Positions 14,475 through 22,498 of a DNA stretch of 22,498 nt are shown piece by piece (within the stretch, counting starts at the first letter, position 1; every line of letters begins with the position of its first letter). The DNA lies in UHGV virus genome UHGV-1419557. One strand, 5' to 3'. Under the pieces are notes generated by a model that saw only the letters and a list, made by a program, of their open reading frames with translations, searched no databases and was not told where the DNA came from. This DNA comes from a virus. The position numbers were made by a program, and so were the translations under genes.

Positions 14475-15926
14475 ATGGCTACGTGGCAACAGGGTATTAA
14501 TTCTGGTGGGTTTCTGGCTGGCATCGGTACGCAAAATGAGAATGCGCCAAAGGCAAGCGACATTAACGCAACGCTTGGTCTGATCCGCGAAAACAATGAA
14601 CTGGCTCGATCAGGTGCAAATAACGTTGCTCTGACAGGTCTTCGTGGTCTGGCTGGAGTTGCTGATATTTATAAGCAGCAGCAAAAGCAGGAGCGTAAAG
14701 CGGCATTCCAGAAAGGTTATGCGGATGCTTATGCGTCCGGCGACAGGGAGCAGATGCGTAATCTTATTACAGCATTCCCCGAAGAGTTTGAGGAAGTCCG
14801 TAAAGGCATGGGGTATGTCGATGACGCCCAGCGGGATGATTTTGGCAATCTGGCGCTTAAGGCTCAGGTCGCTTCGTCGCTTGGTCCGGGTGCATTTGGC
14901 AGGTTCATGATGGATAACGAAAAGGAGATGCGTCGTTTAGGTATCCCTCCAGAAACTATTGCGGAAATGCAGGTTAATGACCCGCAGGGCTTCCAGCACT
15001 TCGCAGGTAATCTGGCACTATTTTCTCTCGGTCATGAGAAGTATTTCGATATCAAAGATCAAATGGAAGGTCGGGATATTGAGCGTGGCAAGTTGGCAGA
15101 GACGATTCGCAGCAATAAAGCTGGGGAAGGTTTAAAGGCGCAAAGCATTGCTGTTAGCCGTGAAAACTCCCTGCGCACTGCTGGAGGTGCTGTTCCTGCA
15201 TCTGTTAAAGAATATCAATATTTCAACAGCCTGTCTCCAGAGCAACAAAAGACATATCTTCGTGTTCGAGGTCGTCCTGATGCTGGCGGGGAGAATGTTG
15301 TGCAACTGGCAGATGGCAGAACGGTAACGGTTGGTAGGAAGCTTCACGGCGCTGGTGCTAATGCGTTCTACGAAGGAATAGACAACGAGGGCAATATGAT
15401 TCGCGTCCCCGCCAGTTCTATTGCTGCTCCGGCTACATCGGCAGCTAATGCACAGAATTACGAAATGAAGAAAGATCTTGATGCAATTTCTGGCGCATCA
15501 ATTGACGATCTTGGCTTCATGACAGGTATTACAGGTTCTTCAGGTTCTTTTGCTCTTGGTGCAGATATTCGTAGCAGGGCATCTGGTGTTGAGGAGAGGA
15601 GGCTATACAACGCTGCACAGCGAATCATGGGCAAAATGCAAAATCAGGGGATTGCAGCAGCCCGAGATATGGGGGCATCTGGCATCAACACCGAAGCAGA
15701 GGCCAATAGGTATTTTCAGGGTATGCCAAAGCCTGATTTCTCAAGTCCTGAAGCGCTGCAACAATCAATGCGCGACATTCAGCAATATACCGACAATTAC
15801 AACCAGCAATATAACGTTAATGTTGGTAATGGCGGGAAGAAATCATCAAGGCAACAGCCAGCTACTCAGCAATCAGCAGGAGGTAGCTACACGTCAAAAT
15901 CAGGCATTCAATTTACGGTGGAATGA
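14475..15926 (+). CDS. Ejection protein, P22 gp20-like
   Basis: 483 aa following gp7; size and order match P22 gene 20. Confidence 0.85.
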
Positions 15927-17938
15927 TGAAAGTAACTGCAAATGGTAAGACATTTACCTTTCCTGATGGTACGAGCACGGAAGATATTGGGTCCGCCATT
16001 GATGAGTATTTTGCTGGTCAGTCAGCGCCAACACAACAAGGTGTTCAGCAATCGCCAGCAGACAACTCACTTGCATCAGGATATGCACAGCTTGCCACTC
16101 AGCAGAAGGAAGGACTAGATCGCTCTGCTGAGCAAGGGGCTGTTTTAGGTGCTGCAATGCGCGATGCCGTTACCGGTGAAAGCCGAATGACACCAGAAAT
16201 GGAGAGACTGCAAAATGTTGGGGCTGCCCCTGAGTTGAACTCACTAAGCATGGATGCCCTGAAGGCTGGATGGTCTCAACTTTTCGGCTCCGACGCGTCT
16301 CAGGAAAAGATTCTTCAGAGTATGGGGGCGAAATTAAGGCAGGATGAGAAGGGTAACACTATCGTTTCCCTGCCATCCGGTGATTATGCCCTGAACAAGC
16401 CAGGTTTATCACCGCAAGACCTGACTTCGTTTCTTGCTAATGCGTTAGCGTTCACACCAGCGGGCAGGGCTGGAACGGTGCTTGGTGCCATAGGGAAATC
16501 AGCTGCTACAGATTTAGCACTACAGGGTGGCACCAGCCTTGCTGGCGGAGAAGATATTGATCCTGCACAAACGGTAATTTCTGCTGGCATTGGTGGTGTT
16601 GGCAAGGGGCTGGAAAATACAGTTAGTGCGGTTTCCAGGGCTGTTCGCGGTGAGATGTCACCGGAAGCAAAGGCTGCTGTCGATTTTGCGTCGGAAAGAA
16701 ACCTGCCGTTAATGACCAGTGACACGCTGAAAGATAAAACCTTTATGCAGAGTCAGGCTCAGACATTAGGCGAAAGAGTTCCTTTTTTTGGAACCGGTAA
16801 GAATCGGCTGAATCAACAACAAGCACGAGAAAATTTAGTCAGAACATTTAGCGATGGTCTGGGTGGCATTTCTGATAAACAGCTTTATGAATCTGCGACT
16901 AAAGGGCAACAAAAATTCATTGAGGCAGCAGGAAAGCGATATAACCGCATAATTGACGCTATGGGGGATACCCCTGTCGATCTCTCAAACACGGTAAAAG
17001 CTATCGACAATCAGATTGCCGTGTTAAGCCGCCCGGGCAAATCTCAGGATAGAGCCGCGGTAAAAGTCTTGCAGCAATTTAAAGACGATATCACCAGCGG
17101 ACCCAATGACCTGCGTCTGGCGAGAGAAAACAGAACTGACCTTCGAAAGCGGTTCATGAATTCAAACGAGACTGTTGATAAAGACACGCTCCAGAAAGCC
17201 AGCGATATTGTCTACAAGGCATATACAGCGGATATGAAAAAAGCAGTATCCCAAAAACTAGGCTCAGAAGAAGCTGCCAATATGTCTAGGGTTGATCGCT
17301 CATGGGCTAGATTCAATGACATGATGAGAAGAACGCGCGTTCAAAAGGCAATAGCCAGCGGCAAGGCTACACCTGAGGATGTAACAAAACTCGTTTTTAG
17401 CCAAAACCCATCAGAACGTTCTCAGCTTTACAGGCTTCTGGATGACAATGGTAGGCAAAACGCACGAGCAGCCATAGTTCAGAATGCTGTAGATAAGGCG
17501 ACTGATCCGTCTGGAAATATTAGTGTTGAAAAGTTTATTAATGCGTTACACCGGAACAGGAAGCAATCAGCAACTTTCTTTAAAGGCGTACATGGAAAGG
17601 AACTGGACGGCGTTATTAAATACCTCAACGATACAAGACACGCGGCAAAAGCGAACGTTCAAAACTTAAATGGTCAGCAGCTTTATGGATTGTTAGTTGG
17701 TGGTGGCATCATAAACGCAGCAGTATTAGCGGGGATGCTAAAAACGGCTGCGTTTGTTGTTCCTGCTGCTGGTGTCGTAGGAGGAGCTGCGAAGGCATAC
17801 GAAAGCCCTGTTATACGAAATGCCTTGTTACGTCTGGCAAATACGCCAAAAGGTAGCACAGCATATGACAGAGCGATCAGTACGGTCACACAATCGCTCA
17901 CCAGAGTCGCACAGGCATCACAAAAAGAAGCTCAATAA
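15923..17938 (+). CDS. Ejection protein, P22 gp16-like
   Basis: 671 aa, ATGA overlap with gp20, Gly/Ala-rich hydrophobic segment near the C-terminus. Last gene of the ejection cluster. Confidence 0.85.
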
Positions 17939-17943
17939 CTGGC

Positions 17944-17972
17944 AGCCACGGATGGCTAATTTTTATTCTTTG
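17944..17972 (+). terminator. Weak intrinsic terminator after gene 16
   Basis: 5-bp stem agcca / tggct with cgga loop, followed by AATTTTTATTCTTT. Confidence 0.3.
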
Positions 17973-18306
17973 ATCTCGTCCACAGGTAAAGAAGAGCAAT
18001 GGCAAGACAGGAAACAGAGAATAGATAACCTACCTCATATGGTGCGCCAAAAAAATTAGCTATTGATACGGGCAAAAAAGCCGAAGCGATCAGAATTGAA
18101 AGGCAAAAAATAAGCCCAGTAACATAGTTTATTAAACTCTTAAATGAGAAACGTTTTGCTTGATTTACGGTCTCAGCGAGTGATCGCTTAACGATGGATA
18201 AAAGCAAATAGATGGCGACAGTAGCTAATGCCCCTTTCCACCAGTCTGGATATAGTTTTGCGACAATCAGCCCAAGGAAAACCATGATGACAGACTGAGC
18301 ATTCAC
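17956..18306 (-). CDS. Small integral membrane protein (about 4 TM helices), function unknown; candidate superinfection-exclusion-type moron
   Basis: 116 aa with four hydrophobic segments. GTG start with SD aaggagg 5 nt upstream. Convergent with gene 16, divergent from the adjacent + strand operon. AT-rich. Confidence 0.6.
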   Translation of the reverse strand: MNAQSVIMVFLGLIVAKLYPDWWKGALATVAIYLLLSIVKRSLAETVNQAKRFSFKSLINYVTGLIFCLSILIASAFLPVSIANFFGAPYEVGYLFSVSCLAIALLYLWTRSKNKN

Positions 18307-18385
18307 ACCAACCTCCTTAGTTTTGCGCAGGATACCAGATGATGTATAGGAGTGGGAGTAAAGTTAGTCGGTGATAGAACGGTGG

Positions 18386-18414
18386 TTGCATAATGATATC
18401 ACGTGACGTAAACT
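18386..18414 (+). promoter_or_regulatory. Candidate promoter for the two-gene operon, with embedded palindrome TCACGTGA
   Basis: TTGCAT (18386-18391), 17-bp spacer, TAAACT (18409-18414). Perfect 8-bp palindrome TCACGTGA (18399-18406) lies inside the spacer. Confidence 0.3.
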
Positions 18415-18481
18415 TATTGCGCATAGCGTGTATTCAATGGATGCATAGCTATTGATAATCTCCGATAAGAAGGAGGTTTGT

Positions 18482-19048
18482 ATGAGCAATGAGACTAATG
18501 GGATTGATGAAATGTTTAGCTTGAACGCTGCCAAAGCTGGAGTCGCAATAGGTTTGCTATTACAGCAAGCTTCTGCGTTCAGTTGTGAGGTGGTTGTTAC
18601 TGATAACGTTCAGCACGCTTACCATCAATCCTCATTCAGCAGTGAACGGGCTAATGATGAGCTTCATGAGGCGGTGTCTTCGATTAAAGAATTGTCTCGA
18701 ATGCTGAAATACGCTTATCGTGTTCTTGCAAACGCTACCGATGAGAATGTAGACAATGTGTTGTCTATCATTGAACCAGAAAAGTCTCGATTGATAGAGC
18801 ATCAATTGAGAGGACTTGAAGGGGCAATGAAATCGGTATTCAAAGAAGCTTCTGCTGATTTTAAAGAGATCGCAAGAGATATCTATATCGTTGTTGCTGA
18901 TGCCAGATCTGCCGTAACCAACCTGAATAGTCTTATTAAACAACGCTCATGTGTTCCGGTTGTTTTTGATAGTTCCGTAGATATGGCTGGTTTGCGTGCG
19001 CTTGCTGAGCACGGGACTCGTGTGTTTCACTCTGGTAACTTCCACTGA
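18482..19048 (+). CDS. Hypothetical protein (188 aa), first gene of a two-gene operon; candidate partner/antitoxin of the downstream YafO-like protein
   Basis: Strong SD aaggagg 6-7 nt upstream of ATG 18482. Stop is 8 nt before the next start, whose SD lies across this stop. No recognised domain. Confidence 0.65.
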   Translation: MSNETNGIDEMFSLNAAKAGVAIGLLLQQASAFSCEVVVTDNVQHAYHQSSFSSERANDELHEAVSSIKELSRMLKYAYRVLANATDENVDNVLSIIEPEKSRLIEHQLRGLEGAMKSVFKEASADFKEIARDIYIVVADARSAVTNLNSLIKQRSCVPVVFDSSVDMAGLRALAEHGTRVFHSGNFH

Positions 19049-19056
19049 GGTAAAAC

Positions 19057-19506
19057 ATGCAAGTAACCGTGGAATATAATCAGGATAGTTTTGACTATTT
19101 TTTCTCCCCGGTTTTTGTTGAGTTTCCTGATTTAAAACAAACACTTGTAGATGATTTTATCATCTACAAGTCTACGGGAACGTTGCCCAGCTATTTTGGC
19201 AGAGACACCTCTTATCATCGACCTCCTGATATTGAAGATGCAGGCCTTATGCACCTTCATTTAGCAATTGGTGAAAATAAATTTGAGCCAATAAAAAATG
19301 GCACAGATATCAGCACACCGCAAAAGTTGCAGTGGCATAAAACATCCAATACCGCTCTCGTTTATGCACAAAATCTTTTTGATGAGAACAGGTATTCATT
19401 GATTGCTCTTTTTCATCCTGTAGCTCACATGTCTGCTAACAATCATAATAGAATGAGAGTGTTAGCAGGGTATGCGAGAGACTTTAGAAACACTATGTTT
19501 GACTAA
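19057..19506 (+). CDS. YafO-family toxin-like protein (putative ribosome-dependent mRNA interferase domain)
   Basis: 149 aa. DFIIYKSTGTLPSYFGRD ... HLHLAIGEN.F.P ... ALVYAQNLFDEN.YSLIALFHPVAHMSANNHNRM ... FR parallels recalled E. coli YafO (DFISYKRDGVLPDIFGRD ... HIHLANENNPFPP ... HLVYCQGAFDEQAWLLIAILKPEPH ... DNNQM ... FR). Followed by a strong terminator. Confidence 0.6.
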   Translation: MQVTVEYNQDSFDYFFSPVFVEFPDLKQTLVDDFIIYKSTGTLPSYFGRDTSYHRPPDIEDAGLMHLHLAIGENKFEPIKNGTDISTPQKLQWHKTSNTALVYAQNLFDENRYSLIALFHPVAHMSANNHNRMRVLAGYARDFRNTMFD

Positions 19507-19554: not shown

Positions 19555-20091
19555 TCAAACAACCCACCAGTTTGCCTGATTGGATGCCAGCCTTGCAGTT
19601 TTTATGGAATTAATTATGCCATGCTCAAGAGCCTTGTTAGCATCCAAAATGGTCGAGTCTGCTATCAGGGATGCCCACCTAATATGGGTTCCGATGTCGA
19701 TATTGAACGTCTCAACGAAGCGATCAAGATCGTTATCGAGGCATTTCCCGTACTCTCTCAATCTGGCATGGTCGGCGGCTGGGGAGGCAAAGCACCATAA
19801 TAGAGGATGTAACAGGAATCTTGATAATGGGTTTGCGAAACGTTCTGAGCCAGCCAGGAAAACGATATTAGCTATGGATTCAACATTGCTTATGTTGTGA
19901 GTTCTAACGGTAACAGGGAGTGACTTAAGAAAGTTATACGCAGTAAAGCCAGCAGCAGTTTCCCCTCCCTGACTTGATATATGGATATTTAATTCAGTTG
20001 CGCCTTGAGATAATGCGGTGAGACAGTGGTTCTGAAGTTGCCCAACAGTGGCAGTGTTAACAGGGCATAAGAAATGAATTGTGTGCAGCAT
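19555..20091 (-). CDS. Compact ClpP-like (peptidase S14 / ClpP-crotonase fold) protein, translationally coupled to mnt
   Basis: 178 aa. IHISSQGGETAAGFTAYNFLKSLPVTVRTHNISNVESIANIVFLAGSERFANPLSRFLLHP aligns by eye with ClpP [63 protein letters not shown], with the catalytic Ser and His positions conserved and a candidate Asp downstream. Start ATG overlaps mnt stop (TAATG on - strand); SD aagga upstream. Confidence 0.65.
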   Translation of the reverse strand: MLHTIHFLCPVNTATVGQLQNHCLTALSQGATELNIHISSQGGETAAGFTAYNFLKSLPVTVRTHNISNVESIANIVFLAGSERFANPLSRFLLHPLLWCFASPAADHARLREYGKCLDNDLDRFVETFNIDIGTHIRWASLIADSTILDANKALEHGIINSIKTARLASNQANWWVV

Positions 20092-20339
20092 TATTTTTCA
20101 TCCTTAGCATACATGGTCTTTAGCGTCTCAAGTAGCGCCTCTTTGAATTTATCAGCTTCTTGCTGAGCAAATGACTCAACTGACTTTGGCGACCTATCTT
20201 CATCAATCGCGGCTTGCAAAATCATGACGATCTCGGAGTTAACAGAGCGACCATTTTTTGATGCTCTGACAGCAAGAGCCTCGCGTAAAGATTCAGGGAT
20301 TCTTACCGTAGTTGGAGAAATTGACACACCCTTTGCCAT
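20091..20339 (-). CDS. mnt: Mnt repressor (ribbon-helix-helix, Arc/MetJ superfamily)
   Basis: 82 aa from ATG 20339 (- strand). NGRSVNSEIVMILQAAI motif and ...ETLKTMYAKDEK C-terminus parallel recalled P22 Mnt. Divergent from arc as in P22 immI. Confidence 0.8.
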   Translation of the reverse strand: MAKGVSISPTTVRIPESLREALAVRASKNGRSVNSEIVMILQAAIDEDRSPKSVESFAQQEADKFKEALLETLKTMYAKDEK

Positions 20340-20606: not shown

Positions 20607-20776
20607 TTCGCTTGGATGCAGTAGTCAAAGAGATTGCGATTACCATTTTAAGACCAAATTTTGTTCATGGCGAATCATTTGGCACGAACGAAAAATTGAG
20701 AAGAGAAAGAGTATTCAGTGGCAAGCGCACGTTTTCAGAAGTGATGCTTGATGCGGCAAAGAAATCAAAACAGTGA
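20603..20776 (+). CDS. Possible small ORF (57 aa, GTG start) in the arc-ant spacer; speculative
   Basis: GTG at 20603 overlaps the arc stop (GTGTGA) with SD-like gagggggt 7 nt upstream. Open to TGA at 20774-20776. Lys/Arg-rich product, no known domain. Confidence 0.25.
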
Positions 20777-20842
20777 AGCCCCAACTGCTGGAACAGTCAG
20801 GGCTTCGGTTGTCGGTAAATCCGTGGAGAAAAACCAACATGA
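20758..20842 (-). ncRNA. sar: Candidate sar-like antisense RNA covering the ant ribosome-binding site
   Basis: On the - strand: extended -10 TGCTATACT (complement of 20845-20853) would start transcription near the ant ATG. Hairpin (gaagccc 20775-20781 / gggcttc 20800-20806 plus inner 4-bp stem) followed on the - strand by TGTTTTGATTTCTTT acts as terminator. Predicted RNA about 70-85 nt, antisense to the ant SD and start, as for P22 sar. Confidence 0.35.
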
Positions 20843-21841: not shown

Positions 21842-22498
21842 ATGACAGACATTACAGCCAATGTGATTGTATCGATGCCTTCGCAACTCTTCACTATGGC
21901 GCGTTCTTTTAAAGCCGTAGCCAATGGCAAAATTTATATCGGTAAAATTGACACTGACCCGGTAAATCCTGAAAACCGGATTCAGGTTTATGTAGAGAAC
22001 GAAGACGGCTCTCACGTTCCTGTTTCGCAACCAATCATCATTAACGCTGCTGGTTACCCTGTATATAACGGACGGATTGCCAAGTTCGTAACTGTGCAAG
22101 GCCATTCTATGGCTGTGTACGATGCGTATGGCGTACAGCAGTTCTATTTCCAGAATGTGCTGAAGTATGATCCTGATCAACTACGGCAGCAATTAGAAGA
22201 CCCAGATGGAGCGAATAAATACCCAAAACTTCAGATAGCAAGATGGAGAGACAGTTATGATGTAAGAGGTTGGGGGGCTATTGGTGATGGTGTTCATGAT
22301 GATACATCAGCTCTATCAGAATTACTTTCTGTTGCAACAGGTGGTGAAAAGATAGATGGGCGAGGGCTTACTTTTAAAGTATCAACTCTTCCAGATGTCA
22401 GTCGATTTAAAAATGCTCGTTTTTTATTTGAGAGAATACCGGGTGGATTTGCCCCTATATTTCCAGACACCTGTTATCACTTAACCCATTACTGGCTT
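21842..22498 (+). CDS. Tailspike protein, 3-prime partial: P22 gp9-type head-binding domain followed by a different receptor-binding domain
   Basis: SD ggag 8 nt upstream of ATG 21842. First ~115 aa ([59 protein letters not shown]...VLKYDPDQ) match recalled P22 tailspike N-terminus. Downstream [15 protein letters not shown] is a pectate-lyase-superfamily beta-helix entry motif. Open to window end. Confidence 0.9.

Follow-up and report, generated by a model that had tools for sequence, protein, structure and literature searches.

The window, the whole stretch of 22,498 nucleotides analysed here, is a P22-like (Lederbergvirus) prophage of Escherichia coli of the CUS-3/P22-like kind. Prophages of ATCC 11775, S88, APEC O1 and other ST95-type strains are 100% identical to it, and CUS-3 matches it at 99.5% identity over 69% of the window length. 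The segment 17800-19600, which comprises a gene for a hydrophobic protein of 116 amino acids (aa) and its neighbours, has no match in CUS-3, where hkcB is held at the place taken in the window by the 116-aa gene. The genes of this region follow the order gp7, gp20, gp16, 116-aa gene (minus strand), p188, YafO toxin, ClpP-like and Mnt-like RHH genes (minus strand), arc, sar RNA and ant. The features on which the present analysis draws are as follows:

14475..15926, plus strand: gp20-type ejection protein (Inj_translocase), which accompanies gp16 and the 116-aa gene on PICI-like islands
15923..17938, plus strand: gp16-type ejection protein, the convergent neighbour at 17 nt, adjoining the 116-aa gene in every intact locus examined
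17944..17967, plus strand: gene-16 terminator hairpin AGCCACGGATGGCT with a T-run, the second conserved boundary of the slot, overlapping the stop codon of the 116-aa gene
17956..18306, minus strand: gene for the 116-aa, four-helix hydrophobic protein, GTG start, an orphan family in the sieA slot
18304..18344, minus strand: slot leader cassette CATCATCTGGTATCCTGCGCAAAACTAAGGAGGTTGGTGTG, with the SD at 18312-18319 and the start codon, which also precedes P22 sieA, HS1 sieA (diverged) and unrelated slot genes
18329..18337, minus strand: putative extended -10 TGGTATCCT, of the pattern TGnTAnnnT
18370..18414, plus strand: p188-YafO promoter region, with an invariant block (18370-18389), -35 TTGCAT (18386-18391) and -10 TAAACT (18409-18414)
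18394-18401 and 18399-18406: palindromes TGATATCA and TCACGTGA, respectively, in the 17-nt spacer of that promoter
18482..19506, plus strand: p188-YafO, a separate moron of two genes, the first for a helical protein of 188 aa (phrog_8416, presumed antitoxin) and the second for a YafO-family toxin
19555-20339, minus strand: ClpP-like and Mnt-like RHH repressor genes (immI), the 178-aa ClpP-like gene directly downstream of the Mnt-like gene
20772-20838, minus strand: sar antisense RNA (Rfam, 83.9 bits), at the start of ant

With this sar RNA, the immI region is confirmed to be of the P22 type. The nearest relatives of the 178-aa ClpP-like protein are ClpP-related head-maturation proteases. According to the ATCC 11775 annotation, the IS21-family element ISEc12 lies between ant and the tailspike gene (window about 22064-22498; L001 from 9265 onward), and the prophage copy in the window may therefore be impaired.

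The 116-aa gene begins with GTG, and the minus strand immediately upstream reads TAAGGAGG-TTGGT-GTG, in which a spacer of 5 nt separates a strong SD from the start codon, as the first-pass annotation of this DNA had proposed. Database annotations place the start elsewhere. PGAP/RefSeq begins the gene at an internal ATG, for a product of 109 aa, and some records and alleles carry a 129-130-aa form that starts further upstream. The GTG is favoured over these annotated starts because the N-terminal MN.Q..I is kept in homologues of only 35-38% identity, one allele has Ile in place of the internal Met of the PGAP form, and the SD and GTG are conserved at the DNA level. The open reading frame is a real coding gene under purifying selection, with a dN/dS of 0.11-0.21 against the Yersinia allele (at a dS of about 1.0-1.5) and of 0.3-0.5 among closer alleles.

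The earlier description of the product as a hydrophobic protein with four transmembrane (TM) segments agrees with both hydropathy and structure prediction. The GRAVY of the protein is +0.88, and a Kyte-Doolittle plot with a 19-residue window gives four peaks (1.57, 1.66, 2.47 and 1.82), two of them robust and two at the classical threshold of 1.6. The AlphaFold2 model, of modest-to-low confidence (pLDDT 64), is composed of four helices at residues 3-18, 22-49, 55-85 and 90-115. The loop at residues 40-57 carries a positive charge of +4 and the C-terminal tail one of +3, a distribution that fits an N-in/C-in topology. The family has a conserved motif of its own, VAKLYPDxW, of which KLYPDxW is invariant, situated at the predicted periplasmic turn.

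The protein is labelled “hypothetical” in every source and matched no family in Pfam, PHROGs, NCBIfam or PADLOC. A sequence search of the PDB returned no relative, and Foldseek of the AlphaFold2 model (pLDDT 64) against BFVD returned nothing significant, with a best E of 0.5. A one-genome-per-species scan yielded no relatives, and an HMM search run exhaustively over 1.8 billion cluster representatives recovered only seven proteins, all of 96-120 aa. By tblastn the gene was absent from all 50,697 isolated phage records.

Homology to SieA (types A-C, with type A in P22 and type B in HS1; PF26849/phrog_7745) was rejected. BLASTP gave E = 0.29 against P22 SieA and 7.3 against HS1 SieA, and hhalign of the family profiles returned a probability of 0.2%. 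The Pfam set searched was one without the SieA model PF26849; in a PHROGs control, P22 SieA was assigned to phrog_7745 at 9e-109 and the 116-aa protein to no PHROG. SieA proteins are also longer, at 164-212 aa against 116, and have three or four helices in a different arrangement from the four predicted here. The motif FxRYPxEAxxFNK, conserved in the C-terminal cytoplasmic part of SieA (PMC10883804), occurs neither in the 116-aa sequence nor in the alignment of its family, which instead has VAKLYPDxW on the predicted periplasmic side.

Despite this lack of homology, the two genes agree in position, and the predicted character of the 116-aa product resembles that of SieA. SieA is, by experiment, a small polytopic inner-membrane protein of P22-like prophages of Enterobacteriaceae; for the 116-aa product the same character is predicted. 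P22 sieA is located just beyond gene 16 on the opposite strand, as is HS1 type B sieA. The 116-aa gene comes 17 nt past the gp16 stop codon, convergent with gp16, and is flanked in its prophage by the homologues of genes 16 and 9. It thus occupies exactly the place of P22 sieA, with a shared stretch just upstream, in agreement with the exclusion-type position that had been claimed for it.

This shared stretch is the slot leader. The leader of P22 sieA, CATGGTATCCTGCACAAAACTAAGGAGGTTGGTGTG, is near-identical to the approximately 40 nt upstream of the 116-aa gene, the SD and the GTG start included, whereas HS1 sieA is preceded by a diverged copy and starts with ATG. Upstream fragments of 85 bp for P22 sieA, or 106 bp for HS1 sieA, sufficed for full single-copy exclusion (Leavitt et al., PMC10883804), and the leader stretch common to the 116-aa gene falls within these functional fragments. 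The leader contains a putative extended -10 element of the pattern TGnTAnnnT, which is kept in the diverged leader variants TGGTAGAGT, TGCTACAGT and TGCTATCCT and lost in HS1 and in locus L045. Owing to this loss, the assignment of a promoter to the 116-aa gene is inferential, and a consensus promoter scan of both strands of the 175-bp gap upstream of the gene called none.

The slot, at window positions 17944-18344, was compared with L002 (4300-4900), L030 (3800-4045), L032 (35440-36125) and loci L041-L048. At its gene-16 boundary is the terminator hairpin, with the consensus CCATCC(G/A/T)TGG across slots, and at the other is the leader-side flank AAAACTAAGGAGGTTGGTGTG, with AAAACTAAGGAGG as a further marker of the leader. 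Beyond the leader, several versions of the upstream sequence combine freely with the downstream slot gene. A terminator hairpin on one side and a leader before unrelated genes on the other make the slot a swappable cassette site. Each element examined has one such slot, which in two cases (L003 and L043) holds two small envelope genes.

At least nine unrelated gene families reside in this slot, and most encode membrane-anchored or secreted proteins. Apart from SieA in P22 and HS1, the occupants behind the shared leader include a 62-aa two-TM protein (phrog_21338; L030 3817-4005), a C-terminally anchored 297-aa protein, a soluble 140-aa protein, a secreted 111-aa protein (of a 111+75 aa pair), a 107-aa hkcB-like protein (L045) and a 115-aa Rap1a-like secreted or periplasmic protein. 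The slot of CUS-3 holds the coiled-coil hkcB, and that of phage N7 the N-terminally anchored ORF14 of 106 aa, without the shared leader. The small, membrane-anchored products of hkcB (HK620/CUS-3), the 62-aa gene and N7 ORF14 are positional equivalents of the 116-aa protein in closely related prophages, although they are unrelated to it and are built from a single N-terminal TM segment and a coiled coil, or from two TM helices. The leader of the 116-aa gene is common to the 62-aa gene and the hkcB-like gene of L045, but not to N7 ORF14. The 62-aa gene is unannotated by RefSeq in the records examined (E66 and others), and the exact protein occurs on at least 1000 contigs. The presence of the soluble 140-aa, Rap1a-like and coiled-coil hkcB proteins among the occupants indicates that a SieA-like mechanism does not follow from position alone. 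The sieA locus has been cited among the “recognized hotspots of immunity” (PMC11364771).

Among the slot residents checked, the 116-aa gene is the commonest in E. coli. A megablast census, which captures close relatives only, found it in 275 of 5,426 complete E. coli genomes (about 5%), compared with 89 for the 62-aa gene, 35 for sieA type A and 21 for sieA type B. Its carriers include ST95 ExPEC/APEC lineages, strain 83972 and O111 EHEC. Across 34 loci, drawn from genomes of E. coli, Yersinia enterocolitica and Edwardsiella tarda together with metagenome and IMG/VR contigs, a gp16 gene adjoins the 116-aa gene or its homologue (down to 35% identity) in 33. The gp16 concerned is of the window type, at 63-100% identity; P22 gp16 is only about 30% identical to it. 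The upstream neighbours vary, and include p188-YafO, a same-strand ClpP-like gene and a secreted 110-aa protein, among others. The single exception is a decayed O111:H8 island by ykgL (L040 7010-7399), where the 116-aa gene stands without gp16, and its retention there may reflect selection for this gene alone. The same remnant also keeps PerC and an HTH gene, and has lost both gp16 and gp20.

Phage N7 has a 70%-identical gp16 and a different slot gene, and this rules out strict co-inheritance of the 116-aa gene with one gp16 type. The linkage is therefore one of adjacency and cassette exchange rather than obligate pairing.

The gene is also carried by satellites. EcCIMP1-like PICIs of E. coli 83972 and other strains and of Edwardsiella tarda (L009-L013, L004 and L039) contain gp20, gp16 and the 116-aa gene in succession, without capsid genes, and the 83972 island has gp14 and gp7 homologues in addition. 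These islands encode AlpA and PerC, their primase shares 99.7% identity with the EcCIMP1 primase, and they often lie beside the vat island or cadC. The literature searched contained no report that satellites carry the 116-aa gene together with ejection-protein genes. EcCIMP1 itself, the PICI of E. coli MP1, depends for its mobilisation on Kapi1, a P22-like phage. It is the one related satellite reported to contribute to superinfection immunity, and no known defence system was identified in it (PMC11773190). It resembles the islands described here in its ejection-protein genes, near-identical primase, PerC and AlpA. In contrast, its gp16 is of a different type, and both the 116-aa gene and the leader cassette are absent. 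EcCIMP1 was thus rejected as a carrier, and its superinfection immunity cannot be credited to the 116-aa protein.

On the basis of the sieA position and the common upstream stretch, superinfection exclusion appears to be the best available hypothesis for the 116-aa gene, one founded on position and expression signals and not on homology. The product would be a lysogen-expressed inner-membrane exclusion protein, a SieA analogue without homology to SieA, that blocks DNA delivery by P22-like phages; the probability of this reading is put at about 0.5. According to this proposal, prophages and satellites would bear a four-TM protein of the inner membrane, about 13 kDa in size, and its gene would be expressed in the lysogen by a sieA-type promoter, separately from the late operon and the YafO module. 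The protein would be inserted N-in/C-in, with its invariant KLYPDxW turn facing the periplasm, and, like SieA, it may interfere at the inner membrane with the trans-envelope conduit formed by gp20 and gp16 of the superinfecting phage. Small phage membrane proteins such as T4 Imm are comparable, being hydrophobic inner-membrane products of a resident phage that would stop translocation of the genomes of its relatives. T4, however, belongs to a different phage group and uses a different entry machinery from the P22-like elements.

The exclusion reading is favoured by the sieA position and leader, the predicted polytopy, the adjacency to gp16 and carriage on PICIs, the envelope-type character of other occupants at an immunity hotspot, purifying selection, and retention in the O111:H8 remnant. 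It is weakened by the missing homology to SieA, the mixed builds of the occupants, the absence of the gene from isolated phages and from EcCIMP1, the case of N7, the inferred promoter and the pLDDT of 64.

Since slot residents of other builds exist, a different defensive or envelope function constitutes a serious rival, although it is judged a tentative possibility only. The 116-aa gene might then be a lysogen-expressed membrane moron with another job, such as abortive infection or ion-channel activity (depolarisation of the membrane in the manner of SieB, RexB or holins), a defence directed at unrelated phages, or a contribution to host envelope physiology or fitness. A hotspot with many unrelated occupants is consistent with such a role, as is the survival of the gene without gp16 in O111:H8, and Tai-type defences have been reported at this kind of locus (PMC11364771). 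A weak likeness to holins points in the same direction: PF07332 (holin superfamily III) was hit at E = 0.065 and Foldseek matched LydA/holin structures at E = 0.8-0.9. None of these matches is significant, however, with PF07332 scoring 13.7 bits against a cut-off of 28.4, and the 116-aa gene is outside the lysis cassette, the lysis genes of the window being at about 1.6-2.8 kb on the opposite strand; identity as a holin is not supported. Nor is there a conserved partner gene of the kind that RexA represents for RexB, as the upstream neighbours vary, and PADLOC found no defence match.

A role in the element's own DNA ejection is improbable. The 116-aa protein would in that case serve its own gp16 and gp20 as a membrane partner or immunity factor, for instance by protecting the producer cell or aiding conduit formation, and its close adjacency to one gp16 type, both in prophages and in PICIs that retain only gp20 and gp16, would be explained. 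However, the gene is on the strand opposite to the late operon and behind a sieA-type leader, phage N7 has this type of gp16 without it, no isolated phage carries it, and the O111 remnant keeps it when gp16 is gone.

The remaining question is how the gene relates to the divergent unit on its upstream side. The gap between the start of the 116-aa gene and the ATG of the 188-aa gene (p188) spans 175 bp (18307-18481), and the gene downstream of p188 encodes a YafO-family toxin (PF13957, E = 3e-22), as expected from the earlier claim of divergence from a toxin-like operon. The palindrome TCACGTGA is also found as described, at 18399-18406 within the 17-nt spacer of the hexamers TTGCAT and TAAACT. 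Although this pair matches the consensus at only 7 of 12 positions, an alignment of seven regions upstream of p188 homologues (encoded proteins 54-100% identical) keeps TTGCA-N17-TAnA(C/A)T at a constant spacing of 17 nt, with the leader conserved too. The conserved hexamers and spacing thus support the candidate promoter of the first-pass annotation. A 20-nt block at 18370-18389 is nearly invariant in the same alignment, and better conserved than the coding sequence.

The palindrome itself does not share in this conservation. Across p188 promoters of proteins 54-79% identical, only three of its eight positions are invariant, the site reads GCACATGA, CCATGTAT, TCACGTCA or TCATGTCA in other prophages, and the region upstream of the HK639 p188 orthologue lacks the palindrome. 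Perfect 8-bp palindromes number 64 in the window, with at least one in 35% of 175-bp windows, and the occurrence of TCACGTGA is not above chance. For these reasons it was rejected as a conserved operator of the type II toxin-antitoxin kind. The left edge of the YafO module lies near 18345-18365, a variable stretch where window-type and L017-type sequences diverge, which places the palindrome well inside the module, at about 35-55 bp from its edge. The idea of a dedicated operator for the 116-aa gene is therefore not sustained, and TCACGTGA belongs to the p188-YafO promoter region and is probably not a control site of the 116-aa gene.

The gap was also described as a shared control region, which is not supported; it is the mosaic junction of two independently mobile modules, each found with other partners. 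The p188-YafO module occurs in only 55-78 complete E. coli genomes, compared with the 275 that carry the 116-aa gene. It is present in the tail region of the siphophage HK639 (L034 2462-3480), and several P22-like prophages of Salmonella and E. coli have it in their immI region, beside different slot genes. In loci L005-L008, the same ClpP-like gene is found 55 nt upstream of the 116-aa gene on the same strand, so that p188-YafO in the window looks like an insertion between the two.

A dedicated regulator encoded within the module could not be recognised. The p188 protein has no Pfam or NCBIfam domain, neither its sequence nor its fold has a significant match in the PDB, and its AlphaFold2 model (pLDDT 70) is an all-helical bundle without HTH or RHH; its identity as a recognisable DNA-binding antitoxin is not supported. 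The pairing of a YafO toxin with the all-helical p188 (phrog_8416) differs from the classical DNA-binding antitoxin arrangement. Arc or Mnt of immI was considered as a regulator of the p188 promoter from a match of TGATAGAA to a half-site of the P22 Arc operator. This candidate is not supported either, as the motif occurs at chance frequency, the arc operator region of the window itself is different, and prophages whose Arc/Mnt types differ all keep the block unchanged. More plausibly, regulation of the p188 promoter is exerted through the invariant block or a repeated TGAYA motif, and concerns the toxin module rather than the 116-aa gene.

A reading along the lines of the first-pass annotation, with the 116-aa gene and the toxin operon regulated together through TCACGTGA by a dedicated regulator, is very improbable. 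The starts are divergent at a distance of 175 bp, the back-to-back layout recurs with p188-YafO in other prophages, three 8-bp palindromes are present in the gap where about 0.5 are expected, and the nearly invariant 20-nt block suggests regulation, but those other prophages have a different slot gene, most genomes with the 116-aa gene have no YafO module, TCACGTGA is not conserved among orthologous p188 promoters, neither unit encodes a recognisable DNA-binding protein, and the stretch between the two conserved parts is variable.

Membrane proteins encoded by prophages in the sieA immunity slot are a kind already known. The family of the 116-aa protein is unnamed, unrelated to SieA and commoner in E. 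coli than sieA. An extension of the exclusion reading, offered here as a speculative possibility, is that the sieA slot is dedicated to anti-entry proteins, of which the 116-aa family might be a fourth, non-SieA class, and that EcCIMP1-like satellites might co-mobilise the cassette with a matching gp20-gp16 pair and so control from which P22-like particles their host can receive DNA.

No inhibitor of the P22-type ejection-protein conduit other than SieA has been characterised, and its gp16 and gp20 targets, to which escape mutations map, are very diverse. If the exclusion reading is true, an unrelated protein in the sieA slot would serve as an independent probe of this conduit, and would also account for some of the resistance to P22-like phages that prophages and satellites confer, a matter of relevance to phage typing and therapy. 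The conserved flanks of the slot offer a simple route to more candidate anti-entry genes.
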